Positions 1,488 to 54,420 of a stretch of DNA of 54,515 bases are shown here, piece by piece (position 1 is the first letter of the stretch; each line of letters starts with the position of its first letter). This DNA comes from Omnitrophica WOR_2 bacterium RIFCSPHIGHO2_02_FULL_45_21 (GTDB taxonomy: Bacteria; Omnitrophota; Gorgyraeia; Gygaellales; UBA12090). The stretch spans positions 1 through 54,515 of the forward strand of contig MHGN01000005.1 in the NCBI GenBank assembly GCA_001805575.1. The letters run 5' to 3'. Below the pieces are notes generated by a model. The model had not been told where the DNA came from and searched no databases. It worked only from the letters and a program-made list of their open reading frames with translations. The translations under genes and the position numbers were made by a program.

Positions 1488-2008
1488 GGCAGTTAGATAT
1501 CTATATTGACGGCGCAGCTAAGGGTAACCCAGGCCCGGCGGGAATCGGCGTTGTCATTCTCCTGGATGGCCGGGTGCTTAAAAATATATCCAGATTTATT
1601 GGTAATAAAACCAATAATGTCGCTGAATATACCGCGCTTATCTATGGTTTGCAGGAAGCGCTGATTTTACTGGCGGACAAGAAAATCGCCTTCCCGCCTT
1701 TGGCGGAATCCGCCGTAGGCGTGATCGGCGATAACTCTAAGCGATTTTCAGTGGTTGGGAAAGTGCCTTATACTTTCCCAGACCATAAAATAAGAGTTTG
1801 GACTGATAGCGAACTGATTTCTAAACAGCTCAAAGGCGAATATAGAGTCAGGCACGAAAATTTAAAGCCGCTCTTTGAGCAGATAAAACATTTAACCGGC
1901 GGCTTCGGCTCATTCGAGATTCATCATATAAGCCGCGAACGTAATCGCGGGGCGGATAAATTAGCAAATCAGGCAGTTAAAGAATCAAAGATTAGAAGGC
2001 AGGCTTAG
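1484..2008 (+). CDS. rnhA: Ribonuclease HI carrying an internal insertion of about 36 aa
   Basis: Catalytic D-E-D-D context YIDGAAKGNPG, NNVAEYTAL, VWTDSEL, RGADKLAN; TTG start overlaps the upstream stop (TTGA). Confidence 0.85.
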   Translation: MRQLDIYIDGAAKGNPGPAGIGVVILLDGRVLKNISRFIGNKTNNVAEYTALIYGLQEALILLADKKIAFPPLAESAVGVIGDNSKRFSVVGKVPYTFPDHKIRVWTDSELISKQLKGEYRVRHENLKPLFEQIKHLTGGFGSFEIHHISRERNRGADKLANQAVKESKIRRQA

Positions 2009-2435
2009 GTGGACGCCCCCACCGCTTTACTTTGCAAAGCGAAGCAGTGAGGGAGGAAAGTCCGGGCTCCGGAGGGCAGCGCACCCTGAGAATATCAGGG
2101 CATCCCGCACCTTTTATTTATTCATGTTTTGGATAAAAATTTTGAATACTAAAAAGGTGCGGGATAGGATAAGAGCCACAGAGACGAGTAGCAGTTGAGG
2201 GTTTGTGAAAAGTTAGATTCTTCGGCTGCGAGATGAAACGAGGCAATCTCTGCGCGGAGAAAGGTCAAATAGGCCCAGCCCATTCTACCAATAATGGTAG
2301 GAATAAAAGTAGCCCGCTTGAAATTCTCATTTTATGAGAATGGGCTGGGTGGGTAGACTGCTTGAGTTCCGATGGTAACATCGGAATCTAGAGGAATGTC
2401 CATAAATAACAGAACCCGGCTTATGAGCCTGCTTC
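1995..2435 (+). ncRNA. rnpB: RNase P RNA, bacterial type A
   Basis: P4 strands GAGGAAAGTCCGGGCTC (about 2052) and ACAGAACCCGGCTTA (2409-2423). P1 pairing GAAGGCAGGCTT (1995-2006) with GAGCCTGCTTC (2425-2435). P2 TGGACG/TGTCCA. Long AT-loop hairpin ATCCCGCACCTTTT...AAAAGGTGCGGGAT. Ends are +/-10 nt. Confidence 0.88.
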
Positions 2436-2446
2436 AATTCGCGCGA

Positions 2447-2499
2447 ATAACTTACGTCGCTATAGTGAAAGCGAGTGCTCCGTAAGTTATGCGCTCATT
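2447..2499 (+). repeat. Hairpin-plus-GCTCATT element, copy A
   Basis: ATAACTTACG (2447-2456) pairs with CGTAAGTTAT (2481-2490), then GCGCTCATT (2491-2499), 3 nt before the ATG at 2503; clearly homologous to copy B at 23433-23485. Confidence 0.8.
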
Positions 2500-2502
2500 T
2501 AA

Positions 2503-3387
2503 ATGACCGTTATTCATCACCAGCATCACGGAATAAATAAGCTTTCGCGATTGAGGATTGCCTTAATCTTAACAGCCGTAGGTATGCTTTTTGAATTCCT
2601 AGGAGGTTTTCTTTCTAACAGCTTAGCTCTTATCTCCGATGCCTGGCATATGCTTACTCATTTATTTGCTTTGGGGATGAGCTATTTTGCCATATTGCTT
2701 GCTATGCGTCCGGTGACCAAGAAGCGCACCTATGGATTTTATCGGGCAGAAATCCTGGCAGCATTTGTCAACGGGATAGCGCTGATTTTTATATCTGTCT
2801 ATCTGGTCTATGAGGCGATTTTGAGATTTATGTCTCCCCAGAAGATAAGGGTCGGGGAGATGCTCTTTGTGGCAGGATTCGGTTTGCTGATTAACGGCCT
2901 AAGCACTTATCTTTTAGCCAAAGTAAGCCACCATGATTTGAATGTGCGCAGCGCCTTTTTGCACGAAATCGGGGATTTAGTATCCAGCGTCGCGGTGGTT
3001 GCCGCGGGATTAACCATATTTTATACCAATAGTTATATCATCGATCCTTTAATTTCCCTTTTTATCTGCGCGCTCATTATGATTTGGGCGGTGAAGCTGA
3101 TTATTGACTCCGCAAACATACTCCTGGAGGCAGCCCCGAAACATCTGGATATTGACGAGGTGGCTGCAGTATTGAAGAATGAAGTGAGCGGCGTCTATGA
3201 GGTGCATCATCTGCATGCCTGGACTATCGCATCTTCAATGTATGCCCTGACCGCCCATGTGGTTATTGAGGACTGTCAAGTAAGCAGTGCAAACGAACTT
3301 CTAAAAAAAATAAATACCTTACTGGAGGAGAGATTCCGCGTTGAGCATACCAACATCCAGTTTGAGTGCCTGATTAAAAAGCAATGA
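2503..3387 (+). CDS. Cation diffusion facilitator (CDF) divalent-metal efflux transporter
   Basis: His-rich N-terminus, six hydrophobic segments, SNSLALISDAWHML signature, C-terminal cytoplasmic domain. Confidence 0.85.
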   Translation: MTVIHHQHHGINKLSRLRIALILTAVGMLFEFLGGFLSNSLALISDAWHMLTHLFALGMSYFAILLAMRPVTKKRTYGFYRAEILAAFVNGIALIFISVYLVYEAILRFMSPQKIRVGEMLFVAGFGLLINGLSTYLLAKVSHHDLNVRSAFLHEIGDLVSSVAVVAAGLTIFYTNSYIIDPLISLFICALIMIWAVKLIIDSANILLEAAPKHLDIDEVAAVLKNEVSGVYEVHHLHAWTIASSMYALTAHVVIEDCQVSSANELLKKINTLLEERFRVEHTNIQFECLIKKQ

Positions 3388-4106: not shown

Positions 4107-4115
4107 GGAGGTTGA

Positions 4116-4301
4116 ATGAAAGCAGTAGTTGACCCGGATATTTGTATTGGCTGCGGCTTATGCGCGGATACCTGTCCCGGAGTTTATCGGATGGAAGGGG
4201 ATAAGGCAGTTATCTCTCTAGAGCCTGTTCCGCCGGACCAAGAGGAGTGCGCGCGCAAGGGCGCTGAGGAATGTCCGGTTGAGGCAATAAAAATATTATA
4301 A
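4116..4301 (+). CDS. Small single-cluster ferredoxin
   Basis: 61 aa with CIGCGLCADTCP ... CP motif; GGGAGG 5 nt upstream. Confidence 0.85.
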   Translation: MKAVVDPDICIGCGLCADTCPGVYRMEGDKAVISLEPVPPDQEECARKGAEECPVEAIKIL

Positions 4302-4357
4302 GATAGAGCGCAGAAATTTATGGAAATTGATTGAGATTGGTGGAAATTTATACTTTC

Positions 4358-4460
4358 GCGGCCAAAAACCGCCCCGCCGATGGCTGGGCGGATGGGTTTG
4401 GCCGCTCAAGTATTTCGCCAAGCAAGGAACCCCAGGCTTTAGCCTGGGAGGGGCTCCATT
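4358..4460 (+). repeat. GC-rich nested-hairpin intergenic element with a GGGCTCCATT tail
   Basis: Outer stem GCGGCCAAA (4358-4366) / TTTGGCCGC (4397-4405), inner CCGCCC/GGGCGG, second hairpin CCCAGGC-TTTA-GCCTGGG (4431-4448), tail GGGCTCCATT (4451-4460); ends resemble the short element at 42029-42052. Confidence 0.6.
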
Positions 4461-4517
4461 GTATACGAGGCAACAAATCTCCATATCTTTCAACGAATCT
4501 CCATATATTTCAGAGAT

Positions 4518-5528: not shown

Positions 5529-7279
5529 AAACAAAAAATATTCTGCGCCTGGGCATGGCGCAGATCAATACCTGCGTCGGTGATTTCTCGGGGAATACCC
5601 GGAAAATAATCAGCGCTATTGACCAGGCCAGGAAAGCGAGTTGCGACATTATTACCTTTCCTGAACTGAGTATCTGCGGTTATCCGCCCGAGGACCTCCT
5701 TTTTAAAGATAGCTTTATTCAGGAAAATCTGAGGCGCTTGGATGAAATAAGAAAGAGGACTACGCAGCTTGTGGCGATTGTCGGTTTTGTGGATAAATCT
5801 AAGGGCCAATTATTTAACAGCGCGGCAATCATTTATGAGCAAAAAATTATTGATATTTATCATAAGATACACCTTCCTAACTACGGCGTTTTTGATGAAA
5901 AACGTTATTTTACAGGAGGTAAGGGATTTTCTCTTTATGAGTTATCGGGAATCCGTTTTGGAGTGAATATTTGCGAAGATATCTGGATTGAAGACGGGGT
6001 CATTGCGGCACAGGCAAAATCCGGCGCCAGTTTGATTTTAACCATTAACGCCTCACCGTACCATATGGGAAAGATACGGCTTCGCCAGAGAGTGCTCAAA
6101 GAGCAGGCCAGGAAAAACAGAGTTTTTGTCCTCTATACGAACCTGGTCGGCGGCCAGGATGAACTGGTTTTTGACGGCCGAAGCATGCTGCTCACGGATA
6201 AAGGCCGGGTTGCCTCAAGCGCATTTGCTTTTAAAGAGGACCTGCGTATCGTTGATATCGAGAAAAATAAACTGCCTAAAAAGCAAAGAGCTAAAAGAGT
6301 GCGGCTTGTATCCATTGATATAGAGAAACGAGAGGAGGGCTTCCCTAAGCCACCGCTAATTTCAACTCAGCCGCCGAAGCTTATGCCTATGGAAGAGGTA
6401 TTTTCAGCCCTGGTTTTAGGGACTCAGGATTATGTGCATAAAAATGGTTTCCAGAAGGTAGTTCTGGGTTTAAGCGGAGGCATTGATTCCAGTTTAGTAG
6501 CAGTAATCGCCGCTGAGGCATTAGGAAAAGAAAACGTGGCCGGCGTCCTCTTGCCCTCAAAGTTTAATTCCCGGGAAAGCCTTGATGACGCGGCAGCCCT
6601 GGCAAATAATCTAAGAATAGAACATAGGATTATCCCGATTCAGGAGATTTTCCAGATGTATCTTAAGATTCTTAAACCTCATTTCTCAGGTAGGCCCTGG
6701 AACGTGGCTGAAGAAAATCTCCAGGCGCGCATCCGGGGGAATATCCTGATGGCGTTTTCAAATAAATTTGGCTGGTTGGTCCTGACTACCGGAAATAAAA
6801 GTGAGATGAGCGTTGGCTATGCCACGCTCTACGGAGATATGGCCGGCGGATTCGCGGTGATTAAGGATGTGCCGAAAACAATCGTCTATAAGCTGGCGGA
6901 GTTTTACAATTGTAAAGCAATGAGCGAGGTTATCCCGAGGCGCGTTTTCAAGAAAGCGCCCACTGCGGAATTGAAGGAAAATCAGAAGGATGCCGATACA
7001 TTGCCTGAATATGCAATACTTGATCCAGTATTAAAATACTACGTAGAGCAGGATTTATCCGTTTCGGAAATTATTAAGAAGGATTTTAGCAAGGCACCCC
7101 GCTGTAGGCGGGGCGATAGGCAAAGCCACAAAGGAGAGGTCTTAAGGGCCGTTCTGATGGTGGATAAGAGTGAGTATAAGCGCAGGCAGTCGCCGCCGGG
7201 AATAAAGATTACTCCGCGGGCATTTGGAAGGGACAGGAGAATGCCGATTACTAATAGATTTAATGAAGCCGCCGGTTGA
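5525..7279 (+). CDS. nadE: Glutamine-dependent NAD+ synthetase
   Basis: N-terminal CN-hydrolase domain, C-terminal synthetase domain with SGGIDSS P-loop and the EYKRRQSPPG...FGRDRRMPITNRF tail. Confidence 0.9.
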   Translation: MKTKNILRLGMAQINTCVGDFSGNTRKIISAIDQARKASCDIITFPELSICGYPPEDLLFKDSFIQENLRRLDEIRKRTTQLVAIVGFVDKSKGQLFNSAAIIYEQKIIDIYHKIHLPNYGVFDEKRYFTGGKGFSLYELSGIRFGVNICEDIWIEDGVIAAQAKSGASLILTINASPYHMGKIRLRQRVLKEQARKNRVFVLYTNLVGGQDELVFDGRSMLLTDKGRVASSAFAFKEDLRIVDIEKNKLPKKQRAKRVRLVSIDIEKREEGFPKPPLISTQPPKLMPMEEVFSALVLGTQDYVHKNGFQKVVLGLSGGIDSSLVAVIAAEALGKENVAGVLLPSKFNSRESLDDAAALANNLRIEHRIIPIQEIFQMYLKILKPHFSGRPWNVAEENLQARIRGNILMAFSNKFGWLVLTTGNKSEMSVGYATLYGDMAGGFAVIKDVPKTIVYKLAEFYNCKAMSEVIPRRVFKKAPTAELKENQKDADTLPEYAILDPVLKYYVEQDLSVSEIIKKDFSKAPRCRRGDRQSHKGEVLRAVLMVDKSEYKRRQSPPGIKITPRAFGRDRRMPITNRFNEAAG

Positions 7280-7285
7280 ATTAAG

Positions 7286-8521
7286 ATGTTTAATCCCGTA
7301 AAAATTAAAGAAAATCTATACTGGGTTGGCGCGATTGATTGGAATATCCGTACCTTTCATGGCTATACCTATTCAACGCACAGCGGGACAACCTATAATT
7401 CTTATCTTCTCGTTGATGATAAAGTAGCGCTCATTGACGGAGTGCATATGAATTTCTTTGATCAGTGGCGCGAGCGCATCAGCCGGGTTATTGACCCGAA
7501 AAGAATAGATTATTTTATCTGTAATCACGTAGAGCCTGACCATTCAGGGGCAATTCCGCAGATGATGCAGTTAATGCCGCAAGCAAAAGTAATTACTAAT
7601 CAAAGGGCAAAGGATGCGCTCTTAAAATATTATTCTACCTATTGGAATTTTGAACTTGTGAAAACAGGAGATATATTGAAGCTGGGAAAAAAGACGCTTA
7701 AGTTTATTGAGGCGCCGATGATACATTGGCCTGACAGTATGTTTGATTACCTTGAGCAAGACGGCATTCTTTTTTCCAATGATGCCTTTGGCCAGCACTA
7801 CGCTAGCTTAGAACGTTTTGATGACCAGGTAAGCTTAGAGCTGCTCATGGATGAGAATGCCAAATACTATGCCAATATCCTCTGGCCATTAAGCCCGATC
7901 ATTTTAAAGAAGCTCCAGGAGATTAAGGCAATGAATATTCCGTTGGAAATGATTTTAACCAGCCACGGCTTAAGCTGGCGAAAGTATGCGCATAAGGCGG
8001 TAGAATCGTATATAAATTGGGCGAAGGGAAGCGTCTCCCAGAAGGTCTTAATTGTCTATGATACGATGTATTATTCTACCGAGAAGATGGCTTTAAGCAT
8101 TTTAGAAGGGATTCTTTCAAGCGGCATCGCTGCCCGGCTGTATCGTTTGCCGGTATCGGATATGGGTGATATCATCAAGGAATTTTTAGATAGCAAAGGA
8201 ATCCTGCTCGGCTCCCCGGTGGTCAACAATGAGATATTGCCGACAGTAGAAAAATTTCTATTTGAGCTCAAAGGTTTGCGCCCATTGAATAAAATTGCGG
8301 CATTCTTTGGCTCTTATGGTTGGATGAAGGAGCAGGCGGCAAAATATGCAGAAGGGACAATGGGAGAAGCAGGAATAAACATTGCTCTTCCGGCATTGAA
8401 TATAAGGTATGCCCCGGCTCCCGAGGAACTAAGGCAGTGTTTTGACTTTGGCCAGAAATTTGCCCTGGAGGTGAAGAATGGAAACCAACGAAATAATGCA
8501 GGAAAGGCTCGCCAAGCTTGA
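7286..8521 (+). CDS. Flavodiiron protein (FprA-type O2/NO reductase)
   Basis: MBL-like di-iron domain (HVEPDHSG) fused to a C-terminal flavodoxin-like domain. Confidence 0.85.
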   Translation: MFNPVKIKENLYWVGAIDWNIRTFHGYTYSTHSGTTYNSYLLVDDKVALIDGVHMNFFDQWRERISRVIDPKRIDYFICNHVEPDHSGAIPQMMQLMPQAKVITNQRAKDALLKYYSTYWNFELVKTGDILKLGKKTLKFIEAPMIHWPDSMFDYLEQDGILFSNDAFGQHYASLERFDDQVSLELLMDENAKYYANILWPLSPIILKKLQEIKAMNIPLEMILTSHGLSWRKYAHKAVESYINWAKGSVSQKVLIVYDTMYYSTEKMALSILEGILSSGIAARLYRLPVSDMGDIIKEFLDSKGILLGSPVVNNEILPTVEKFLFELKGLRPLNKIAAFFGSYGWMKEQAAKYAEGTMGEAGINIALPALNIRYAPAPEELRQCFDFGQKFALEVKNGNQRNNAGKARQA

Positions 8522-9971
8522 GAGGCTAGAGCAAAAAGGGATAAGGCCTTACGGAGCATTGCCAAAATTTAGCGCAGCTATGTCCATAGCCAACGTTCTC
8601 TCCTGGTTTAAGGAAGGAGCCCAGGCTGTTATTTGCGGCAGGCTGATGGCCAAGAGAGAGCACGGCAAAGCTGTATTCTTTGACCTCAGAGACCAGGAGG
8701 CAAAGCTCCAGGTTTATGTAAAAGAGGATATCTTGAGTAAAGAAGTTTTACAATTATGCGCAAGTTTAGATATCGGGGATGTGTTGTTAGTTGAAGGAGA
8801 GCTTTTTAAAACCCGCACCAATGAGCCGACGATAAAAGCGCTGGATATCCGTTTATTAGCCAAGTCCTTTAGGCCCTTGCCGGAAAAATGGCACGGCTTA
8901 AAGGATATTGAAACCAGATACCGTAAGAGATATATAGACCTCATTGCTAATTGCCAGCTGCGTAAAATCTTTAGCCAGCGCAGTAAAATAATTTCGGGCA
9001 TACGTAATTATTTAGATAAGAAAGGATACTTGGAAGTAGAAACTCCGATGATGCATCCTATTCCCGGGGGAGCCGCCGGCAGGCCATTTAAGACGCATCA
9101 TAATGAACATAATATGGATTTATATTTAAGGATTGCGCCAGAGTTATATTTAAAACGGCTGCTGGTAGGTGGTTTCGAGAAGGTTTATGAGCTCAACCGT
9201 AGTTTTCGCAATGAGGGGCTCTCGACTAAGCATAATCCTGAGTTTACTATGCTTGAGGCCTATACTGCATACAGCGATTGCAAGGGGATGATGACTTTAA
9301 GCGAGGAATTAGTTGTTGAGGCGGCGGCGTTAGCCGGATTGGGTTTAAGGTTTGAATATCAGGGTAAGGCCATTGACCTAACTCCGCCGTGGAGGAGGTA
9401 CTCTTTTGCCGAAGTTGTTAAGGAAAGATTTGAGATTTCACCCGAAGATTCAGCGCAAGCGATGCTGACTAAGTTACAGGCAAAAGGCAGGGCATTGAAT
9501 GAGAAAAAACTCAGCCGCTGCCAGGTGGTAAAATTAGTTGAGGACATGCTTTGCGAATCCACTGACTTTTCTCCCGCTTTCTTTACTGATTATTTTTCTA
9601 TCCTTTGCCCACTGGCTAAGAATAAACCGGATAATCCCTATATCTCCGAGAGATTTGAGCTTTTTATCGGCGGTATGGAAATAGCCAATGCCTACTCAGA
9701 ACTCAATGATCCCAGAGAGCAGAGAAAGCGGCTGGAAGAAGAAATGGCTGAAGGCCAGCTTGTCCTCCTCGGGGGACTTGAGCACCCCTCGGGGTGCAAG
9801 CCGGATCAGTTTAGAATGCTTGATGAAGATTTTATCACTGCTTTAGAATACGGAATGCCTCCTGCCGGAGGCTTAGGCATTGGTATAGACCGCCTGGTGA
9901 TGCTTTTGACTAATCAGCCCTCCATACGGGATGTGATTTTGTTTCCTCTTCTAAGGCCGGAGGCCCAATGA
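8478..9971 (+). CDS. lysS: Lysine--tRNA ligase, class II
   Basis: OB-fold N-domain, FRNEG motif 2, GGLGIGIDRLVML motif 3; strong GGAGGTGA 4 nt before the ATG at 8478; overlaps the fprA end by 44 nt. Confidence 0.9.
   Translation: METNEIMQERLAKLERLEQKGIRPYGALPKFSAAMSIANVLSWFKEGAQAVICGRLMAKREHGKAVFFDLRDQEAKLQVYVKEDILSKEVLQLCASLDIGDVLLVEGELFKTRTNEPTIKALDIRLLAKSFRPLPEKWHGLKDIETRYRKRYIDLIANCQLRKIFSQRSKIISGIRNYLDKKGYLEVETPMMHPIPGGAAGRPFKTHHNEHNMDLYLRIAPELYLKRLLVGGFEKVYELNRSFRNEGLSTKHNPEFTMLEAYTAYSDCKGMMTLSEELVVEAAALAGLGLRFEYQGKAIDLTPPWRRYSFAEVVKERFEISPEDSAQAMLTKLQAKGRALNEKKLSRCQVVKLVEDMLCESTDFSPAFFTDYFSILCPLAKNKPDNPYISERFELFIGGMEIANAYSELNDPREQRKRLEEEMAEGQLVLLGGLEHPSGCKPDQFRMLDEDFITALEYGMPPAGGLGIGIDRLVMLLTNQPSIRDVILFPLLRPEAQ
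9755..9809. repeat. CCCCTCGGGG-type palindromic element inside lysS
   Basis: GTCCTCCTCGGGGGAC (9762-9777) and GCACCCCTCGGGGTGC (9782-9797); CTTGTCC..GGGGGACTTGAG matches the reverse complement of 49994-50022. Confidence 0.75.
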
Positions 9972-11146
9972 AGGCAATTTTCTGGATAAGTTGGCGTTAT
10001 TTGTGGGGCAGGCGCAGCGAGCGTTTTGTCTCTTTAATCAGCATTATCTCAATCTTGGGAGTGGCGATTGGGGTTGCCGCGCTGATTGTGGTATTGGCAG
10101 TGATGTCAGGTTTTGATAAAGATTTAAAAGAAAAAATCATCGGGAATTATTCGCACTTAGTGATTGAGCAGCGTCCGGCAATAACTGATTATCATCAGAT
10201 TTTAGAGCGGTTAAGCAAAATTGACCATATTGTTGCCAGCAGCCCTTTCATACAGAGCCAGGCGCTTTTAGAGACAAAAGAATCTGCCCGCGGGATAGTG
10301 GTGCGCGGGATTGATTTGGACTTAGAGTCCAAGGTGACCGCTATTGATAAATATTTGGCCGGCAGCGCCAAAGATTTTGACGGCGGGATATTTATCGGCA
10401 GGGAATTAGGTTATGCCTTAGGCCTTAGCCTGGGGGATGAGATCGTATTAGTTAATTCCAAGGGAAAAAGATTCATCCTCTTAGTCAGGGGATTATTTAA
10501 TTCCGGGATGTACGATTTTGACGCCAACGTCATTTTTATTGATTTGCTCAAGGCCCAGGAGATTTTTGAATTGGCTGAAGGAGTAAATGGTATAAGCGTA
10601 AAGATTGATAAGTTGTTCTTAGCAGCTCTGATCAAGAATAAGATTCAGCATGCGCTGGGAGTTAATTTTTATGTCAGGACATGGATTGAGCGCAACAGGA
10701 ATTTCTTTGCCGCTTTAAAATTAGAAAAGATAGCGATGTTTATTATCTTAACCTTAATTGTCCTGGTTGCCGCCTTCAATATCATCAGCACTCTCGTGGT
10801 TATGGTTATGGAAAAAACCAAGGATATCGGCATATTAAAGGCAATCGGGATGAGTCCTCGGGGCATCCGCTTCATTTTTACCTTAGAGGGGTTATTGATA
10901 GGATCCTTAGGCGTTATGCTGGGAAGCGCAATCGGTGTCTCGTTATGCGTATTACTCAAAAAATACCAGTTTATAAAATTACCTCCTGATATCTATTATT
11001 TAGACAGGCTCCCGGTGAGCCTGGTCTTATGGCCGGATGCGGGAATGGTTATCATCGCCGCATTTTTTATCAGCCTGGTCTCAACGGTTTATCCTGCAAA
11101 AAAGGCGGCGGATTTAAATCCGGTTGAGGCCCTGCGCTATGAGTGA
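9968..11146 (+). CDS. LolC/LolE-family lipoprotein-release ABC permease
   Basis: FtsX-like four-TM permease with a large periplasmic loop, directly followed by a LolD-like ATPase. Confidence 0.8.
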   Translation: MKAIFWISWRYLWGRRSERFVSLISIISILGVAIGVAALIVVLAVMSGFDKDLKEKIIGNYSHLVIEQRPAITDYHQILERLSKIDHIVASSPFIQSQALLETKESARGIVVRGIDLDLESKVTAIDKYLAGSAKDFDGGIFIGRELGYALGLSLGDEIVLVNSKGKRFILLVRGLFNSGMYDFDANVIFIDLLKAQEIFELAEGVNGISVKIDKLFLAALIKNKIQHALGVNFYVRTWIERNRNFFAALKLEKIAMFIILTLIVLVAAFNIISTLVVMVMEKTKDIGILKAIGMSPRGIRFIFTLEGLLIGSLGVMLGSAIGVSLCVLLKKYQFIKLPPDIYYLDRLPVSLVLWPDAGMVIIAAFFISLVSTVYPAKKAADLNPVEALRYE

Positions 11147-37930: not shown

Positions 37931-38000
37931 GTATTTAAGCGGACTTAAAAACTTTACACTTATACACTTTACACTCCCAGCGACTGGAAGGAGCGAGGTT

Positions 38001-42383: not shown

Positions 42384-42438
42384 CATAAGTTATGGAGTCC
42401 GTCAAAGAACAGCAGTAGACGACATAACTTATTTCATT
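42384..42438 (+). repeat. Hairpin-plus-TTCATT element, copy E
   Basis: CATAAGTTATG (42384-42394) pairs with CATAACTTAT (42423-42432), then TTCATT (42433-42438), 3 nt before the fabF ATG. Confidence 0.6.
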
Positions 42439-43683: not shown

Positions 43684-43794
43684 TAAAAATCTACCCCTCG
43701 GGCTAAATCAGATCCTTTTGCGCTTTAACAAGTTATAGAAACGAGCGCTGAAGGATCAGGATAAATCTACCCGAAGGGCAGATTTATCCTGAAT

Positions 43795-46695: not shown

Positions 46696-47735
46696 ATAAA
46701 TATAATATAGCGGTAATTGGTGTCGGCGCAGTAGGCATTGAGATGCTTAGGGTTTTAAGGCAGCGCAATTTCCCCCTTGGCGAACTGCGTGTCTTTGCGC
46801 GGACAACAAGAGAGATTGAGGTTGACGCAGAGAAATATTCGGTAAAGGAAATTTCAGCCGAGGGCTTCAACGGCATTGATATTGCCTTATTTGCCGGGAC
46901 AGAAGGCGAAAAAGGGGCTAGCCTTCAATGGGCGCCGATGGCGGTTGCCAAAGGGGCTGTAGTAATTGATAATGGCGCTGACTTTCGGATGGATCCTAAC
47001 GTTCCCTTAGTTGTTCCCGAGGTAAACGCCAGAGACATAAGAAAACACAAAGGCATTATTGCCAATCCTAATTGTTCTACAATCCAGATGCTGGTTGCCT
47101 TATGGCCGGTTTATAAGAAAGCCGGAATTAAAAGAATAATTTTGACTACTCTTCAGGCCTCTTCAGGTGCTGGTAGGGGTGCAGTTGAGCAGCTTTGGCA
47201 TGAGGTGGAAACTATTGTCGCAGGACACAAGTCGCTTGGCGCAGGTCAAAGTCCGGTAACCTGCGACCTGAGACCTGAGGCAAGAATTATGCCTCAACAG
47301 TTAGGCTTTAATGTTTTTCCTCAGATCGGTAGTTTTAGCGAGTGCGATTATACCAACGAGGAATGGAAGTTAGTAAAAGAGACGCATAAGATAATGCACG
47401 ATGACAAGATTAAAATTTCCGCAACCACCGTAAGGGTTCCGGTGCGCACCGGCCATTCGGAATCAGTATATATCGAGACGAGAAAACTAATTGAGCCGCA
47501 GAAAGTAAGAAACATTCTTTCCAGAGCGCCTGGCATAGTGGTAATCGATGACCCAAAACATAATCTTTACCCTATGCCTAAGGATGCTGAGGGAAAGGAT
47601 GAGACCTTTGTCGGCCGCATCCGCAAAGACCCTTTTGTAAAGAACGGTTTATGGCTATGGGTGGTTGCCGATAACCTGCGCAAAGGAGCCGCTACCAACG
47701 CGGTGCAGATTGCTGAATGCGTAATCTCAGGCTGA
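46692..47735 (+). CDS. asd: Aspartate-semialdehyde dehydrogenase
   Basis: VGAVG Rossmann N-terminus, active-site NPNCSTIQ, RVPVRTGHS. Confidence 0.9.
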   Translation: MNKYNIAVIGVGAVGIEMLRVLRQRNFPLGELRVFARTTREIEVDAEKYSVKEISAEGFNGIDIALFAGTEGEKGASLQWAPMAVAKGAVVIDNGADFRMDPNVPLVVPEVNARDIRKHKGIIANPNCSTIQMLVALWPVYKKAGIKRIILTTLQASSGAGRGAVEQLWHEVETIVAGHKSLGAGQSPVTCDLRPEARIMPQQLGFNVFPQIGSFSECDYTNEEWKLVKETHKIMHDDKIKISATTVRVPVRTGHSESVYIETRKLIEPQKVRNILSRAPGIVVIDDPKHNLYPMPKDAEGKDETFVGRIRKDPFVKNGLWLWVVADNLRKGAATNAVQIAECVISG

Positions 47736-48523
47736 TCATAGAATATGATGGGACGAATTATGCCGGATGGCAGATACAGAAAGGTCAGAGGTTAAACACA
47801 ATACAGGAAACAGTAGGGAAAGCCCTTCAGAAAATCCTACAGGAATATGTCAAGGTTATTGGTTCAGGCAGGACCGATGCCGGAGTCCATGCTTTAGCCC
47901 AAGTAGCAAATTTTAAAACCAAATCAAAACTTCCTCTTGCTAATATCCAAAAAGCGCTTAACAGCCTCCTGCCGGAAGATATCTCTATAAAAGGCATAAG
48001 CGAAGTCAGGGAAGATTTTCATTCCTCTTATTCGGCGAAATCCAAAATCTACCGCTATCTTATCTTCAATAACCGCTTGAAGAGCGCGTTTTTTAATAAA
48101 TATACCTTGCGCGTTCCCTATAAGTTGAATCTGCGGCTTATGCGCCAGGAAGCCGGGGTCTTATTAGGCAGCCACGATTTCAGGTCTTTCTGTGCCAGCG
48201 GCTCGGACGCCAAGACTACTGTAAGAACAATAAAAAAGCTCTCTATAAATACTATACGCTATATGCTCTACGCTAACCCCCGCCTCGCCTGCTTTCGGCA
48301 GGCAGGAGGGCGGGGTAGGCGCTATCCGCTAATCATTATTGATATTCAGGCAGACGGATTTTTATATAATATGGCGCGCAACATTGTAGGCAGCTTAATC
48401 GAAACAGGGCTGGGAAGGCTTGAGCAGGGAGCGATGAAGAAAATTCTACTGGCTAAGGACCGTAGATTAGCCGGGCCTACGGCTCCAGCGCGGGGATTAT
48501 TTTTGATTAAGGTCAATTACTAA
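47717..48523 (+). CDS. truA: tRNA pseudouridine(38-40) synthase
   Basis: YDGTNYAGWQ, catalytic GSGRTDAGVHA, GFLYNMARNIVG. Confidence 0.9.
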   Translation: MRNLRLIIEYDGTNYAGWQIQKGQRLNTIQETVGKALQKILQEYVKVIGSGRTDAGVHALAQVANFKTKSKLPLANIQKALNSLLPEDISIKGISEVREDFHSSYSAKSKIYRYLIFNNRLKSAFFNKYTLRVPYKLNLRLMRQEAGVLLGSHDFRSFCASGSDAKTTVRTIKKLSINTIRYMLYANPRLACFRQAGGRGRRYPLIIIDIQADGFLYNMARNIVGSLIETGLGRLEQGAMKKILLAKDRRLAGPTAPARGLFLIKVNY

Positions 48524-48550: not shown

Positions 48551-50179
48551 ATGAAAGATAGCGGACGATCTTCTAGCATGGGAAATTATCAAGTAAAATA
48601 TTCCTGGGATTCTTATTCCAAGCTTATCATAGTATCCTTTTCTGTGCTACAAATTATGCGCTGGAGAATCCTTCCCCAGTTTATGGATATCTTTTATCAT
48701 ATTTTGACTGCCTGGGGGTTTATCCAGGCAGGTGGATACAGTGGCTGGGACTTCTGGCAATATGCGCCGGTGGGAAGAACCCATATTTATCCCCCGTTTT
48801 TACATATCGTCCTGGCTTTTCTTATCAAGTCAGGTATTAGCAAAATCATCTTAGTTAAGTTCTTGGAAACGGCGGCGCCAATTACTTGTATGCTTACGCT
48901 TTGGTATTTTGTAAAGAGGAATTATAGCAGCCGCCTGGCATTTTTCTCTATGCTTATGCTTGGCTCGTCATTTTCCTTTTACAGTTCATTGTCTAATTAT
49001 CTCCCGGCGACCTTAGCAATGATTTTTGGTTTCCTGGGTTTAGATGAGCTTTTCAAGGTGCGTTTTGTGCGCCCTGCGCTTTTGTTCACCCTGTGTTTTT
49101 ATACCCATATCGGAATGTCCTGGTTTTTTGCTCTTAGCGTTATCTTATACGGTTTATTTGATAAGCGATACGCAAGGGTATTTTTTGCGGCTTTTGCATT
49201 TGCGCTAATCTTATCGGCTCCAATGCTCTACAAGCAATTGACGGGCTTAAGATATATTTCTATCTCAGGTATAGGCAATGAGAAGTATTTCTGTGAATTC
49301 AAAACCATTGATTACCTGCTGGCTTTTAATGCAATCTGGCTGCTGAGAAAGAAGGATAAGAAATACCGCCTCTTTTTGGCATTTTTCTTATCCAGCCTGA
49401 TTTTTCTGCCCTATCCCTATCGTTTTATTAATGCCCAGGGATATTTGCCGATTATCTTGCTTTCGGCAATGGCGCTGGATTATTTGTATGAGAAGTTTTG
49501 GGATAAAAGGAGATATACAAAGCCGTTATCCATATTTTTATTTGGTTACATTTTGCTATTCTCTCCAACCGTTGCGATGAATAAGGATATGGAGAAAGGA
49601 GGCAGAATTAAATATAAAATACATTTAGCCGATTCGGCGTTGATAAACTTGCTTTTGCCAGGCCGTAATGAGCGTATTTTCTCAAGTCTGGTCTGGCTTC
49701 CGAATGAATACCTATCCCTGTCCCAATTAATAAGGGAAAATTCTCTAGCCGGGGATATTATTTATTCTAAACTTTATCTTCTGGGCATCATCGCATCAAG
49801 TCTATCGGAGAGGGCAAGCGCAAATGGCTTATTTCCCGAGATTGCTCCTAGCGGAAAATTTGACCCCTTTTTAGTTTCGAAGCTGATTGTAGTTCCGCAG
49901 GATGAAGATAGGGAAATGTTTGAGGCAATTCTGAAGAATTATCATTTGCAGAAGGTAGGAGAAAATAGGCTCTTTATCGTTTATAAGAATTATCTCAAGT
50001 CCCCCTCGGGGGACAAGTCAGCTAAAATGCACATAGAAAGGGCATCGCTTACCTTTAAGGCGATTTCGCTTATTCTGGCCGTATGGATGTTATTATTTAT
50101 TTTTGCAGGGAGAATTGAGCATTTTCTATGCAAGGAAAATCGCTTGAATTACAAGTGCGCTTTTCCCTTGACAAAGTAA
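48551..50179 (+). CDS. Large polytopic membrane protein of unknown function (possibly GT-C-like)
   Basis: ORF track; about 10-12 hydrophobic segments over the first 350 aa, then a soluble-looking region and a terminal TM; no motif I can name. Confidence 0.55.
   Translation: MKDSGRSSSMGNYQVKYSWDSYSKLIIVSFSVLQIMRWRILPQFMDIFYHILTAWGFIQAGGYSGWDFWQYAPVGRTHIYPPFLHIVLAFLIKSGISKIILVKFLETAAPITCMLTLWYFVKRNYSSRLAFFSMLMLGSSFSFYSSLSNYLPATLAMIFGFLGLDELFKVRFVRPALLFTLCFYTHIGMSWFFALSVILYGLFDKRYARVFFAAFAFALILSAPMLYKQLTGLRYISISGIGNEKYFCEFKTIDYLLAFNAIWLLRKKDKKYRLFLAFFLSSLIFLPYPYRFINAQGYLPIILLSAMALDYLYEKFWDKRRYTKPLSIFLFGYILLFSPTVAMNKDMEKGGRIKYKIHLADSALINLLLPGRNERIFSSLVWLPNEYLSLSQLIRENSLAGDIIYSKLYLLGIIASSLSERASANGLFPEIAPSGKFDPFLVSKLIVVPQDEDREMFEAILKNYHLQKVGENRLFIVYKNYLKSPSGDKSAKMHIERASLTFKAISLILAVWMLLFIFAGRIEHFLCKENRLNYKCAFPLTK
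49994..50022. repeat. CCCCTCGGGG-type palindromic element inside the membrane-protein gene
   Basis: CTCAAGTCCCCCTCGGGGGACAAGTCAGC with perfect core GTCCCCCTCGGGGGAC (49999-50014). Confidence 0.85.
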
Positions 50180-50630: not shown

Positions 50631-50631
50631 A

Positions 50632-51225: not shown

Positions 51226-52338
51226 ATGTTACGGGTTGGGATAATCGGCGCAAGGGGATATACCGGTGAGGAGTTGCTCAATCTTTTACTTCAGCATTCC
51301 CAGGTTAAGATAAATTATTTGACCGCCAGGGTTGATAGGCCGGTTAAGATTTCAGAGTTATTTCCTCAGTTTAAAAATAGATTAGATTTAGTTTGCGATA
51401 ATTTTAATCTAAGCCATGCTCTGGAATCCGCAGATTTATTTTTTCTGGCGTTGCCGCACACAACCTCTATGGATGTTGCGCCCTTGCTGCGAAAGCGCGG
51501 CAAAAAAGTAATTGATTTAAGCGCGGATTACCGCCTTAAAGATTTTAAACTATATGAAGCATGGTATAAAGCCAAACATAAGGATAGAAAAAACTTAAAA
51601 AAAGCGGTTTATGGCTTAGCGGAGATTCATAAGGCAGATATCAGGGAAGCTGATTTCATTGCTAACCCTGGTTGTTATTCTGCTCTAGCAATACTTTCGC
51701 TTGCGCCTCTTGTAAAAGTGAGGCCGGCGCAGATTAAGAGTATCATTATTGACGCTAAAAGCGGCTATAGCGGAGCCGGCAGAAAATCTACCGATGGTCC
51801 CTCCTGGGGAGAAATCAAAGATAACTTTAAGGCTTACAAGGTAGACAGCCATCAGCATACGCCGGAAATAGAGCAGGAGTTATCAAAATTAGCTAAGAAA
51901 AAAATAAAGGTTACCTTTGTCCCGCATCTCCTGCCCATAGAAAGAGGAATCTTAGAGACGATATATGTAAGATTAAGTGTTCCCTCGGCTTCGCTGGGGA
52001 CAGGCAAGTGCCAGGTCTCAAGTGTCAAGTTGATAAATATGTATAAAGATTTCTATAAAAATCAGCCATTTATAAGAATAAAAAACGAGGGTGAATTTCC
52101 CAGCTTAAGTGATGTCCAGCATAGCAATTTCTGTGATATCGGAATTAAGGCAGGTAAGGATAAAAAACTCATTATTATCATCTCTGCAATTGACAATCTG
52201 CTTAAAGGCGCATCAGGAGAGGCGGTGCAGAATATGAACTTGATGTACGGCTTCAGGGAGAGCGAAGGTCTGCCCCCGTTTGAAACTACAGGGCAAAGGG
52301 AAAAAATAAAGAGGTTTCGAACGGGGTTTACAATATGA
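51226..52338 (+). CDS. argC: N-acetyl-gamma-glutamyl-phosphate reductase
   Basis: VGIIGARGYTGEEL N-terminus, active-site ANPGCYS. ATG 51226 chosen because the 51196 ATG would sit only 3 nt downstream of the putative -10 box (51187-51192), upstream of the expected transcription start. Carries an internal and a C-terminal repeat-derived segment. Confidence 0.88.
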   Translation: MLRVGIIGARGYTGEELLNLLLQHSQVKINYLTARVDRPVKISELFPQFKNRLDLVCDNFNLSHALESADLFFLALPHTTSMDVAPLLRKRGKKVIDLSADYRLKDFKLYEAWYKAKHKDRKNLKKAVYGLAEIHKADIREADFIANPGCYSALAILSLAPLVKVRPAQIKSIIIDAKSGYSGAGRKSTDGPSWGEIKDNFKAYKVDSHQHTPEIEQELSKLAKKKIKVTFVPHLLPIERGILETIYVRLSVPSASLGTGKCQVSSVKLINMYKDFYKNQPFIRIKNEGEFPSLSDVQHSNFCDIGIKAGKDKKLIIIISAIDNLLKGASGEAVQNMNLMYGFRESEGLPPFETTGQREKIKRFRTGFTI

Positions 52339-53462
52339 GTAAATATAAAAATGCTATTTGCTTAGCCAAAGGCTTTACTTGCGCAGCTATAGCCTGCGGT
52401 TTAAAGGAGAATAAAGGCCTGGATCTGGCGTTGATTTCTTCAGAGGTTCCGGCAGTTGCCTGCGGGATGTTTACCGGGAATAGATTTGCAGCCAGCCCGG
52501 TCAAAGTTTGCAAAGAACACCTTAAGACAGGCCGGGCTCAGGCAATTGTAGTTAATAGCGGTAACGCCAATTGTTATACCGGGAAGAAGGGATTACGGGC
52601 TGCCCGGAAAACCGCGCATCTTGCCGCAAAACTGTTAGGCCTAAAAGATGTTTTACTATTGGTTGCATCCACCGGGATTATCGGCAGACAATTAAATTTT
52701 ACTAAGATTAAAAAGGCATTGCCGATATTAGCCGGCTCGTTAGATAAAAATAACGGTACAAAAGCCGCCCGGGCAATAATGACTACGGATACAAAGCCAA
52801 AAGAGTTAGCTGCAAAAATTAATATAAGCGGTAAGCTCATAACTATAGGAGCTATTGCCAAGGGGGCAGGCATGATTGCTCCGGATATGGCAACGATGTT
52901 ATGTTTTATAACTACCGACGTTTTGATTGCATACTCAAGCCTAAAGGCAGCTTTAGAAGAAGCAGTGAATACTTCTTTTAATATGCTCAGCATTGACGGC
53001 TGTATGAGCACTAACGACAGCGTGATTATTCTGGCCAATGGTTTAGCCGGGAACAGGCCGATAAGCTTAAATGACCGCAATTTTATAAAATTTAAAACCG
53101 CCTTAAAAAAAATTTGTCTTGCTTTAGCCAGGATGATTGTTTCCGATGCTGAGGGCGCAAGTAAGTGTATCACTATTAAAGTAATCGGAGCAAAGAATAA
53201 TCAAGAGGCAAAAAAAGCGGGCTTAGCAGTAGCTAATTCTAATCTTTTTAAGGCCGCGGTATATGGCAGAAATCGAAACTTGGGCAGGATTATTGCAGCC
53301 ATAGGAGCATCGGGAGCAAGGAGCAAAGAAGATATAGCCATTGCCTGCAGTTCGCTTAAGAAAAAGGATGTCAGGGTTAAGGTAGATTTAAAAATAGGCC
53401 CTGGTGAAGCTACGGTTTATACCTCGGACCTAACGCCGGAGTATGTCAGGATAAATGCGTAA
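52335..53462 (+). CDS. argJ: Bifunctional ornithine acetyltransferase / N-acetylglutamate synthase
   Basis: GFTCAAIACGLK, autoprocessing site context DMATMLCFITTD. Confidence 0.9.
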   Translation: MSKYKNAICLAKGFTCAAIACGLKENKGLDLALISSEVPAVACGMFTGNRFAASPVKVCKEHLKTGRAQAIVVNSGNANCYTGKKGLRAARKTAHLAAKLLGLKDVLLLVASTGIIGRQLNFTKIKKALPILAGSLDKNNGTKAARAIMTTDTKPKELAAKINISGKLITIGAIAKGAGMIAPDMATMLCFITTDVLIAYSSLKAALEEAVNTSFNMLSIDGCMSTNDSVIILANGLAGNRPISLNDRNFIKFKTALKKICLALARMIVSDAEGASKCITIKVIGAKNNQEAKKAGLAVANSNLFKAAVYGRNRNLGRIIAAIGASGARSKEDIAIACSSLKKKDVRVKVDLKIGPGEATVYTSDLTPEYVRINA

Positions 53463-53477
53463 TACAGCTGAACTTAA

Positions 53478-54332
53478 ATGGAAGAAGCGATTAAAAAAGC
53501 AGATGTTCTGATTGAGGCCTTGCCGTATATCAAGGAATTTCACCGTAAGATAATGGTGATAAAATATGGCGGGAGCATCTTAGGCGAAGAGAAAATCAGA
53601 AAAGGCGTTTTAGAAGATATAGTTTTTTTAAGCTATATGGGGCTTTGCCCGGTTTTGGTTCACGGAGGCGGGCCGAATATTTCAGAGCGGATGAAGTGCG
53701 CAGGCGTTAAAAGCGAATTTGTGGATGGCATGCGGGTTACTGATGAAAAAACCCTGGAGATAGTGGAAGAGGAATTGAATAAACTCAATAAAATCATTGT
53801 TTCTGAAATAAAGGAATTAGGGGGAAAGGCGGTTGGATTTCAGCTGAGAAAACAAAGCATAATCTTAGCTCGGAAAAAGCAAGAGGGCAGAGATTTAGGT
53901 TTTGTGGGGGAAGTGGAGTCCATTGATGTTAAGCCTTTATTACACCAGACAAAAGATTATACTGTCTGCGTAATTTGTCCGATAGGCAAAGGGCAGGATA
54001 ATAGGACATATAACATTAATGCTGATGATGTGGCTTCTTCTGTGGCGGTAAGCCTCTTGGCTGAGAAATTGGTAGTCCTCACCAATGTGCGAGGCATCAT
54101 GCGTTCTCCGGATGACCCAAGTTCTCTTATCTCAACGTTGACCATTGATGAGGCAAAAGGCTTGATTAAGGAAGGAGCGGTTCAGGAAGGAATGATTCCT
54201 AAGGTAAAGTCGGCAATGGCGGCTTTAGAAGGCGCAGTTAAAAAAACCCATATCATAGATGCCAGAATTCCCCATGCGCTCCTTTTAGAGATTTTTACTA
54301 AGGAAGGAATCGGCACGGAAATCATTAAATAA
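53478..54332 (+). CDS. argB: Acetylglutamate kinase
   Basis: VIKYGGS, VHGGGP, amino acid kinase fold motifs. Confidence 0.9.
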   Translation: MEEAIKKADVLIEALPYIKEFHRKIMVIKYGGSILGEEKIRKGVLEDIVFLSYMGLCPVLVHGGGPNISERMKCAGVKSEFVDGMRVTDEKTLEIVEEELNKLNKIIVSEIKELGGKAVGFQLRKQSIILARKKQEGRDLGFVGEVESIDVKPLLHQTKDYTVCVICPIGKGQDNRTYNINADDVASSVAVSLLAEKLVVLTNVRGIMRSPDDPSSLISTLTIDEAKGLIKEGAVQEGMIPKVKSAMAALEGAVKKTHIIDARIPHALLLEIFTKEGIGTEIIK

Positions 54333-54350
54333 TCAAGTTCTACTCTCTAA

Positions 54351-54420
54351 GCTGCAAGCTGCAAGCTGCAAGCTCTTAGCGTGAAGCGTGTAGCGTGAGG
54401 CGCGTAGCAGCCTGATGCGT
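54351..54420. repeat. Degenerate heptad-periodic array (10 units) between argB and argD
   Basis: GCTGCAA x3, GCTCTTA, GCGTGAA, GCGTGTA, GCGTGAG, GCGCGTA, GCAGCCT, GATGCGT in strict 7-nt register. Confidence 0.9.

Follow-up and report, generated by a model that had tools for sequence, protein, structure and literature searches.

How do GC-rich palindromes and tandem arrays of seven- or eight-nucleotide units come to lie, in frame, inside the housekeeping enzymes of an uncultivated bacterium? The question is raised by a 54,515-nt stretch of DNA from Omnitrophica WOR_2 bacterium RIFCSPHIGHO2_02_FULL_45_21 (contig MHGN01000005.1; the whole stretch is called the window here), in which a first-pass annotation had listed 14 such sites in genes including rnhA, lysS, leuC and truA, and had likened them to the Rickettsia palindromic elements (RPEs). 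All 14 sites were found where that annotation had placed them and with the DNA structure it had described, and all lie in continuous plus-strand open reading frames (ORFs). The finding is real, statistically solid and broader than had been supposed. The explanation favoured here, to which we would assign a probability of about 0.65, is that the segments are repeat insertions at the level of the DNA, without an enzyme-specific role, built by linked slippage arrays and dispersed palindromes and filtered by selection.

Thirteen of the 14 sites are insertions or terminal extensions relative to homologues of solved structure or to close orthologues. Insert status was established from solved structures in nine cases (rnhA, tatD, truA, lysS, ispD, argC1, argC2, nadE and the lolD array), and from Omnitrophota orthologues for tsaE, DUF362 and the leuC, fabD and truA loops; these alignments support the earlier proposal that the segments are lineage-specific insertions that preserve the frame. 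The elements range from 16 to 99 nt (the inserts from 21 to 99 nt), with a recurrent palindrome module of 20-21 nt, and every insert in a conserved gene (at least 15 cases) keeps the frame, although the dispersed 20-nt palindrome described below would shift it if present alone. The gene-borne sites, with those missing from the first-pass annotation marked as new, are as follows.

1670-1786, plus strand: rnhA (RNase HI), 32-aa insert from about four successive GC-rich hairpins; in the alignment to PDB 3u3g, residues 68-99 have no counterpart and fall between residues 67 and 69 of that structure.
7091-7135, plus strand: nadE, 13-aa insert; palindrome CCCGC-TGTAG-GCGGG within degenerate heptamers AAGGCAC/ATAGGCA/AAGCCAC; gap against PDB 4f4h.
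9755-9809, plus strand: lysS, 12-aa insert; two CTCG-loop hairpins within an outer stem, forming a branched hairpin; gap against PDB 3a74.
11156-11204, plus strand: lolD1, N-terminal extension with a 9-bp stem and a 31-nt loop; LolD homology begins at residue 23.
11522-11555, plus strand: lolD heptamer array, (CGGCCTC) x4.9 encoding GLRPPASGLRP, 100% matches in Tandem Repeats Finder (TRF); a loop is replaced, with a net gain of 3 aa against PDB 7v8l.
16836-16866, plus strand (new): N-terminus of ORF 16813-17934, heptamer array (CAGGCCG) x4.4.
22703-22723, plus strand (new): ispD N-terminus, 7-aa (21-nt) insert ALPNRQA of the CCTGCC...GGCAGG palindrome family; gap against PDB 5ddt.
23088-23132, plus strand: ispD, 9-aa insert, octamer array (GTGTCAAG) of about four units, found by TRF; gap against PDB 5ddt.
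23958-23986, plus strand (new): ispF C-terminal tail, (AGCGCAA)-type array; the Pfam match stops at residue 154 of 167.
31985-32014, plus strand: tatD, 10-aa insert, near-perfect palindrome GCCCCGCCC-TTGCGCGCA-GGGGCGGGGC; gap against PDB 1j6o.
32532-32549, plus strand (new): tatD C-terminal tail, 18-mer GCCCCGCCGATGGCTGGG, the same as the spacer copy at 4371-4388 (E = 1.4e-4).
33621-33715, plus strand: DUF362/ferredoxin protein, 30-aa insert of two identical 45-nt units, TRF score 190; the orthologue of locus L008 has no insert.
36303-36350, plus strand: tsaE, 16-aa insert, palindrome TTCGACTACGCTCA...TGAGCGAAGTCGAA; the L008 and L011 orthologues have no insert.
40535-40571, plus strand: fabD loop, heptamer array (ATCCAGT) x5.3, 100% matches in TRF; identical in 7 independent contigs.
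44514-44581, plus strand: leuC, (GCTGCAS) x4, an A-rich loop and a degenerate reverse-complement array, forming a hairpin with a 7-nt period (-43.2 kcal/mol).
47215-47283, plus strand (new): asd, insert of 8-14 aa; 21-nt repeat and (ACCTGAG) x3, with the inverted pair GTCGCAGG/CCTGCGAC.
48248-48316, plus strand: truA, 23-aa insert; heptamer array (CTATNCG) broken by a nested palindrome pair; gap against PDB 1dj0.
51987-52035, plus strand: argC1, 12-aa insert of (CAAGTGT)-type units, found by TRF; gap against PDB 1vkn.
52274-52326, plus strand: argC2, 21-aa C-terminal extension, translated from a 53-nt hairpin with a 13-bp stem and an A-rich loop where argC meets argJ; homology stops at residue 359.

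The strength of the DNA structure varies among these sites. The rnhA insert folds at -43.9 kcal/mol against -21.2 kcal/mol in control segments, the tatD palindrome is the strongest fold of the window in a 50-nt scan (-35.8 kcal/mol), and folding as good as that of the nadE insert is found in only 0.7% of control segments. The weakest site is lolD1, where 24% of random window segments fold equally well and the hairpin is unexceptional. In truA the outer palindrome CCCCGCCTC...GAGGGCGGGG encloses an inner hairpin, GCCTGC-TTTCG-GCAGGC, of the CCTGCC family, and the peptide at the insert junction is ANPRLACFRQAGGRGR. The segments were expected to occupy surface loops; in TruA the predicted structure places the insert at a tip, and lolD1, argC2 and tsaE are terminal extensions or tails and not internal loops.

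The repeated unit is the DNA and not the peptide, as had been claimed, since the motifs recur in other genes, in other reading frames and in spacers. For instance, the octamer unit GTGTCAAG of ispD is found again in argC (52022) and in the LeuC gene of locus L012, where GGTGTCAA, a sequence recurring across species, is also present; ispD and truA share the CCTGCC palindrome; a hairpin related to that of lysS lies at 49994-50014, inside ORF 48551-50179; and one arm of the tsaE palindrome recurs at 16938-16955, inside ORF 16813-17934. The reverse complement of the tatD palindrome core is found at 4251-4263, within a ferredoxin-like ORF just upstream of the spacer at 4300-4515, and the array in the ispF tail has its reverse-complement partner in the downstream spacer hairpin at 23983-24039.

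Such motifs are more frequent than in shuffled sequence. A census of the window yielded seven period-7 arrays, whereas 30 dinucleotide shuffles averaged 0.2 and never exceeded 1, with periods 6 and 9 enriched less, and TRF finds 22 period-7 arrays per 100 kb in the window, 14.9 in other Omnitrophota loci and 5.0 in Firmicutes control loci, where period 9 is dominant. Windows of 50 nt that fold at -22 kcal/mol or below number 26, against 6-10 in shuffles (about 3-fold enrichment), and 12 of 16 insert segments rank in the most extreme 2% by hairpin energy or tandem score, against an expectation of about 0.6. Misassembly and genome-amplification chimeras can both yield short repeats and palindromes, and the inserts could in principle be an assembly or sequencing artefact. 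The same inserts are carried by seven contigs of independent ENA and JGI assemblies at 99.5-100% identity, on which ground an artefact is excluded for practical purposes; in addition, long ORFs stay open through all of the inserts, and comparable inserts are found in dozens of metagenome-assembled genomes (MAGs) from unrelated studies.

The same loops are occupied by different DNA in related organisms. A scan of GTDB genomes with LeuC placed the nearest relatives of the window in Candidatus Omnitrophota, the top relative being Omnitrophica WOR_2 RIFCSPLOWO2_12_FULL_46_30 (locus L008; 82% identity). Among about 40 LeuC orthologues, proteins of 417-419 aa from Firmicutes and several Omnitrophota have a baseline loop, and about 20 Omnitrophota species have inserts of varying length and sequence at that one position. 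Their DNA consists of heptamer or octamer arrays, in many cases with an A-rich loop and a reverse-complement array after them (window, L011, L034, L019 and L024), and in L008, L009, L010 and L022 of arrays bordering a GC-rich palindrome. In locus L031 the LeuC loop (10708-10740) is of baseline length, yet is encoded by (CTATACG) x4.6, the unit of the truA insert of the window; arrays can therefore replace loops without lengthening them.

The FabD loop is filled by other arrays or palindromes in 13 other species, and Asd has two insert sites across species. In L008 the LeuC and FabD loops hold DNA unrelated to that of the window, and the TruA loop has the heptamer CTATNCG and both palindromes in common with it, the palindromes being nested in the window and side by side in L008. 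Among the 120 listed homologues, TruA ranges from 244 to 297 aa with two indel hot spots; some of these proteins have peptides with a 7-aa period (TIRYPLSTIRYPL, SPQSIVHSPQ) and others have palindrome-encoded peptides (LPCRQAG, MPACRQGR, PIRQAGA). At hot spot 1 the units are AGGTCAG in the window (two degenerate units), (AGTCCAC) x4 in strain L002 and (AAGTCACA) x4 in L008, which are related but not identical, and this fits turnover of an array at a fixed site. On these comparisons the phenomenon is not peculiar to this genome but runs through Omnitrophota, with one family extending to other lineages and to viral contigs, and the arrays are long-term residents of permissive loops that turn over much faster than their flanks. 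No such inserts were found in LeuB, FabF, FabG, FabH or PlsX of any compared species.

Strain L002, 99.5% identical to the window, diverges from it over some 140 nt in the 5' portion of truA (17475-17620, against window positions 47779-47920), a tract with about 40 single-nucleotide polymorphisms (SNPs) and a 21-nt longer (AGTCCAC) x4 array; the tract looks like an allele imported by recombination. Further recurrent in-frame hairpin families were also seen, namely GTCATTCCCGCGAAAGCGGGAATC (VIPAKAGI...RFHGDD; in the FabD loop of L017, about 6512-7444), VIARS...DEAIS (in TruA homologues P0052 and P0059) and NPVRN...ISNG (in Asd and LeuD of L011, L019, L023 and L034). These peptides appear similar to ones in 'hypothetical proteins' of many environmental genomes.

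One palindrome is dispersed far beyond the window. Its core is CCTGCCTRCCGGCAGGCAGG, with the inner truA hairpin and the N-terminal ispD insert among the family members, and it has the form (CCTG)2CC|GG(CAGG)2, a short tandem repeat followed by its own complement. Of the core, 14 copies were counted in Omnitrophota loci totalling 586 kb, where they lie in LeuC, FabD, TruA and spacers; Firmicutes loci totalling 622 kb had none. An exact-match scan of metagenome contigs returned at least 120 stretches, and the 20-mer is also present in 47 viral-contig stretches of IMG/VR, some contigs having 3-6 copies. The G+C content of the contigs that carry it spans 25-71%, the mode being 40-50%. The ends of the element are sharp, the stem being confined to the 20-mer in 79% of copies, no adjacent target duplication was found, and the flank composition of 136 copies shows no clear target consensus. 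Copies occur in tandem arrays, at the apices of larger hairpins and nested in their own copies (L131, L132, L136, L138, L184 and L206), and in L160 the array pattern is restored exactly once the copy is removed. Closely spaced pairs are found in L008 (at 8514 and 8561) and in L215 (at 2773 and 2806).

The most informative copy is that of contig L155 (3380-4143), where the 20-mer splits a gene similar to those for REP-associated tyrosine transposases (RAYTs; REP, repetitive extragenic palindromic sequence) directly before the HUH motif FVVMPNHVHG. Excising exactly 20 nt restores the ORF across the motif, and the flanks of the insertion site are neither array nor palindrome. The protein matches NCBIfam NF047646 (E = 1.5e-12) with 47.6 bits against a curated cut-off of 80 bits, thus below it, and has no Pfam match. 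This gene provides the cleanest evidence of a discrete insertion event, and since the 20-mer shifts the frame here, insertions are not intrinsically in frame. The L155 contig (60% G+C) is probably not from Omnitrophota. Its RAYT-like gene has, in addition, some 95 aa of low complexity separating the two conserved halves.

In viral contigs with several copies (L234, L243 and L245, which belong to one 29.5-kb IMG/VR contig, and L209 and L247), the 20-mer is in some the centre of a larger inverted-repeat element, in both orientations, and in others lies between (GGTGAGA)n and (TAACCTC)n arrays. In L198 (642-683 and 817-858) and L145 (321-378) it adjoins pieces of tRNA-like sequence, namely a 5' half that includes the D-arm and a 3' end with the T-arm and CCA. 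The possibility that functional tRNA genes had been hit was considered and rejected for these two loci, where the fragments lie beside intact tRNAs and no gene is interrupted; the fragments are possibly remnants of integration sites.

Palindromes and heptamer arrays are not independent of one another but physically linked: palindromes lie inside arrays, and about one quarter of the arrays have a reverse-complement partner. Within 70 nt, such a partner accompanies 22 of 91 period-7/8 arrays in Omnitrophota loci, where controls gave 0, and 51 of 182 in metagenome contigs, where they gave 5, and paired arrays with a palindrome at the apex are found in L092, L115, L011 and L209. The typical composite is therefore an array, an apex (an A-rich loop or a GC palindrome) and the reverse-complement array. 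From the side of the palindrome, strict arrays of period 6-7 flank 5 of 122 copies of the 20-mer (4.1%) against 0.16% of control positions, an enrichment of about 25-fold; most of the arrays flanking the 20-mer are degenerate.

A mechanism that would link these features can be proposed. Arrays with a 7-nt (sometimes 8-nt) unit would arise and turn over through replication slippage, and because 7 is not a multiple of 3, a survival filter would act on arrays in genes, which would retain only those that are free of stop codons in all three frames and of a total length divisible by 3. GC-rich palindromes of 16-55 nt, belonging to dispersed families, would be copied into single-stranded tips exposed by arrays or hairpins, either by an HUH/RAYT-type single-strand enzyme acting in trans or by template switching, and this would explain why they lie within arrays, at hairpin apices and in one another. 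Intrastrand template switching may also copy one arm of an array hairpin from the other, making the arms alike, which would explain why about a quarter of arrays face a reverse-complement array in long hairpins with a 7-nt period. Selection would then retain copies only where they were in frame, free of stops and located in permissive surface loops or at protein ends, a filter that would leave the LeuC, FabD, TruA and Asd loops occupied throughout the phylum and FabF, FabG, FabH, LeuB and PlsX free. More tentatively, and as a possibility on the improbable side, Omnitrophota, some other uncultivated lineages and their viruses may host an unrecognised class of ultra-small mobile DNA, in which a sharp-ended 20-nt palindrome inserts without target duplication into single-stranded tips and builds, with heptamer arrays, self-extending hairpins of 7-nt period; such a class would generate, across the phylum, variation of both length and sequence in the surface loops of core enzymes, and would need an enzyme or a replication mechanism to spread it.

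Several observations weigh against the view that the segments are repeat insertions built by slippage arrays and dispersed palindromes. The heptamer units are highly diverse, with 204 rotation classes among 262 arrays, and the arrays therefore show little sign of one mobile family. Each family has only 1-3 copies in the 54-kb window, and over-represented 8-mers in the window and related loci are mostly conserved orthologous coding sequence, with no high-copy family. The window is without a transposase-like gene that could supply a trans-acting enzyme, and RAYT-like genes are not enriched on the palindrome-bearing contigs (partial as these are), L155 being the only case. The 7-bp direct repeat CCATCGG that borders the tsaE palindrome, the sole flanking repeat seen, is at odds with the duplication-free 20-mer family; the range of 25-71% G+C over which one 20-mer is found could also point to a conserved function; and repeated occupancy of one loop could stem from one ancient array that turned over rapidly and not from repeated insertion. 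Finally, perfect short hairpins are modestly enriched over shuffles (38 against 22), but at 93 per 100 kb against 82 in Firmicutes loci they are not in excess, and the raw number of hairpins is for that reason not the signal; what is distinctive about the hairpins is their location and family membership, not their number.

In one alternative the process is one of purely local mutation and nothing moves from site to site: slippage would make the arrays, template switching at stalled forks or during break repair would make and perfect the inverted copies, and (CCTG)2CC|GG(CAGG)2 would be a favoured recurrent product. Much is consistent with this account, including the extreme diversity of units and their mutual relatedness at one site in related strains, the nearby reverse-complement partner of about a quarter of arrays, the construction of the 20-mer itself from a short tandem repeat and its complement, its lack of target duplication or target consensus, and a search that turned up no mobilising enzyme. 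We nevertheless consider it rather unlikely, as independent creation of an identical, sharp-ended 20-mer at more than 130 unrelated sites, in hosts of such different G+C content and in viral contigs, is hard to envisage, and as the exact insertion into a conserved RAYT-like motif lies in flanks that offer neither array nor palindrome. The nesting of 20-mers in themselves, and the recurrence of longer elements within the window (a second copy of the 53-nt argC2 hairpin, at 34866, and two of the 18-mer, at 4371 and 32532), argue in the same direction. Alternatively, the palindromes could be repeats of the REP or REPIN type, mobilised in trans by a RAYT, an HUH tyrosine transposase, encoded elsewhere in the genome. 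REPs are palindromes of 20-40 bp with a GTAG or CGTC head (PMC3733652), are extragenic and flank a RAYT gene; the single-stranded DNA mobilisation proposed for REPINs leaves no target duplication (PMC3116915). The elements here resemble these in size and palindromic form, in duplication-free insertion and in occasional clustering or nesting, such as the close pairs of L008 and L215, and one of them sits in a RAYT-like gene. They differ in that many copies are intragenic and none of 136 has a GTAG or CGTC head. The L155 match is under the curated cut-off and the gene is disrupted by the element, not flanked by it; no RAYT was found in the window or on the other element-bearing contigs, and a tblastn search with the repaired L155 protein over the other loci found one further RAYT-like gene, in L046, which is without the palindrome. 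Mobilisation of this kind is improbable.

The remaining alternative is that the hairpins and arrays are functional, as mRNA structures (in processing, stability or translational pausing) or as useful peptide loops under selection. Were the segments removed from the RNA, the preservation of the frame in at least 15 inserts would be very improbable, and the segments would be transcribed and translated as part of the host proteins. In an AlphaFold model of TruA (built on 120 homologues; mean pLDDT, the predicted local confidence score, 91.6), strands 169-183 and 202-212 belong to a beta-hairpin that the heptamer-encoded parts make longer, and the stretch encoded by the palindrome (residues 184-201) is an unstructured tip whose pLDDT falls below 50 at 189-193, such that the insert is placed by the model at a disordered beta-hairpin tip. 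The lengthened hairpin, which is widespread (TIRYxLxAIRYxL), would suit a useful loop, as would the LeuC architecture of arms and A-rich loop, kept in five species as the arm sequence changes, and the 53-nt hairpins at two operon-internal gene junctions. However, the predicted disorder of the palindrome-encoded tip does not, and the insert segments fold no better in sense than in antisense (-538 against -546 kcal/mol, 32 against 30 G-U pairs), that is, without strand bias. Strain SNPs cluster in the tatD palindrome and break pairs, with no compensatory changes among the strain differences. In LeuC, arm complementarity is greatest beside the loop and decays outward, which is explained by the two arms sharing a single array unit. 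Close relatives are without the tsaE and DUF362 inserts and many orthologues are insert-free, and the frame in which the 20-mer is read varies, with one copy breaking a gene. The lack of strand bias, the pair-breaking SNPs, the explanation of the LeuC arms and the many insert-free relatives favour tolerated repeat DNA over functional RNA or peptide, and the encoded peptides may well be neutral; a selected function merits very little credence.

Among systems known elsewhere, the closest analogue is probably the association of heptamer arrays and small dispersed repeats (SDRs) in Nostoc. Elhai et al. reportedly described in 2008 (Genome Res 18:1484), for Nostoc punctiforme, SDR hairpin repeats of 21-27 nt that were apparently mobile, mutually nested and sitting in heptamer arrays; that study is not known to describe systematic in-frame occupation of housekeeping enzymes or spread to viral contigs. 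The likeness lies in dispersed hairpins of 20-21 nt at more than 130 sites, nested and within heptamer arrays, and no other system resembles the CCTGCC family more; the phylum is another, and the sequences are presumably different. The novelty that had been claimed for the combination therefore stands in part: searches of the literature on Omnitrophota with heptamer, palindrome or in-frame insertion found nothing relevant, whereas small hairpins in heptamer arrays have reportedly been described for Nostoc. [quoted passage not shown] STRR sequences have few fixed units (CCCCAGT, TTGGTCA, CAACAGT) and are mostly outside protein-coding sequence. Here, by contrast, the units are very diverse, none of those in the window is an STRR unit, and the arrays are in frame in enzymes of a non-cyanobacterial host and often paired with a reverse-complement array. 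The L011 LeuC array contains CAACAGT units, which may be a coincidence, and no convincing enrichment of a common core (such as CAGT, as in STRR and TAACTGA) was found among the heptamer units.

In cyanobacteria, heptamer repeats reportedly also occur inside the RNase P RNA gene (Vioque 1997, cited in PMC2858038). RPEs, in the summary of Ogata et al. (2000) given by PMC10969869, are about 100-150 bp long, make up ten families, each with its own conserved peptide, and are confined to Rickettsia. The likeness to them is of hairpin-forming repeated DNA, in frame in unrelated housekeeping genes, translated and apparently tolerated at the protein surface. The segments described here are of 16-99 nt with a module of 20-21 nt, form many families that are low-copy within the window, are linked to heptamers and are read in different frames, in an Omnitrophota host. 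Thus the RPE-like label given earlier is apt for behaviour and inapt for size and family structure, and the analogy, as RPEs are described, is one of behaviour and not of membership, the host also setting the two apart. Miniature inverted-repeat transposable elements have terminal inverted repeats, a target-site duplication and a length of about 50-500 bp; the 20-mer is below that size and is without adjacent direct repeats. An excess of heptanucleotide simple sequence repeats in prokaryotes, ascribed to polymerase slippage, is credited to Mrazek et al. (2007) in PMC4679880, which also describes the TAACTGA repeats of Beggiatoaceae; the repeats in both cases lie mainly between genes, and those of Beggiatoaceae have one fixed unit carrying stop codons. 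Period 7 is likewise over-represented here, relative to neighbouring periods and to shuffles, in arrays that differ in having no stops, in being translated within the loops of enzymes and in their association with palindromes.

Should a genome-wide analysis confirm it, the in-frame spread of selfish or mutational repeat DNA into core enzymes would characterise a large uncultivated phylum in general and not be an oddity of Rickettsia, with elements an order of magnitude smaller than RPEs. Low-complexity or "hypothetical" segments of proteins from MAGs can be DNA repeats and not domains, and such segments distort alignments, phylogenies and structure predictions. On the other hand, the inserts mark permissive loops, which are potentially useful in protein engineering, and constitute a natural test of the amount of random peptide that a conserved fold tolerates. 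The system ties heptamer slippage to palindrome formation, and the 20-mer family, present in such varied hosts and in viral contigs, gives a tangible starting point in the search for whatever enzyme or replication process spreads elements this small.

Related elements are found between the genes of the window, as follows.

4300-4515, plus strand: intergenic nest of hairpins with 10- and 20-nt tandem repeats and the 18-mer in common with the tatD tail.
34866-34918, plus strand (new): hairpin (about 53 nt, A-rich loop) where the mtnA-like gene meets thiL; a second argC2 copy, with 21/23 identity to 52274-52296.
37905-37980, plus strand: intergenic hairpin in the yceD-plsX spacer, with octamer/heptamer arrays and their reverse complement; copy number altered in strain L003.
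42385-42432, plus strand: intergenic hairpin of 48 nt upstream of fabF, ATAAGTTATG...CATAACTTAT.
54345-54410, plus strand: two arrays in a spacer, (AAGCTGC) x3.7 and (TAGCGTGAAGCGCG) x2.3, whose units are relatives of the leuC insert's.

Some of these spacers differ between strains. In the yceD-plsX spacer the 8-nt unit TACACTTA at 37955 is polymorphic in copy number, L003 having one unit more. In strains L003 (12077-12244) and L004 (3245-3412) the hairpin upstream of fabF is exchanged for 166 nt with three other hairpins, the strains being 99.9% identical; those hairpins have ACTTACG/CGTAAGT-type stems with nested GC hairpins, and similar stems lie at 2443-2494 and 23983-24039 of the window. 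Two long, near-perfect hairpins with the common core AGATTTATC are located at 29512-29547, within a PSP1-domain gene ahead of the domain, and at 43756-43792, in the spacer upstream of leuC.

The window has a G+C content of about 44% and a GC skew that is positive over its full length, and all ORFs of at least 100 aa with a match to a known family are on the plus strand. Pfam and PDB searches, which showed the gene names of the first-pass annotation to be correct, identify RNase HI, NadE, LysS, LolCDE, McsAB-ClpC, MlaEFD, RadA, IspD, IspF, CysS, Tmk, HolB, MetG, TatD, TsaE, PlsX-FabHDG-AcpP-FabF, LeuCDB, Asd, TruA, L13/S9 and ArgCJB, a gene complement of ordinary housekeeping operons. Two ORFs, 16813-17934 (373 aa) and 48551-50179 (542 aa), have no Pfam match, and each holds elements known from other sites of the window. 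The ferredoxin-like ORF directly before the repeat-rich spacer at 4300-4515 is small (4117-4290; about 58 aa, with a CxxCxxC motif) and falls under the 100-aa cut-off.

An Rfam search of the window found only an RNase P RNA and two tRNAs, and no family for the repeat elements. The RNase P RNA, of the bacterial class A (1996-2439, plus strand), overlaps the final codons of rnhA and is 444 nt long against a model of 367 positions. Its extra sequence consists of 14 nt in the P3 loop, a 56-nt hairpin replacing 4 model positions (2102-2165) and a further insertion of 44 nt, an arrangement reminiscent of the STRR insertions in cyanobacterial RNase P RNA.

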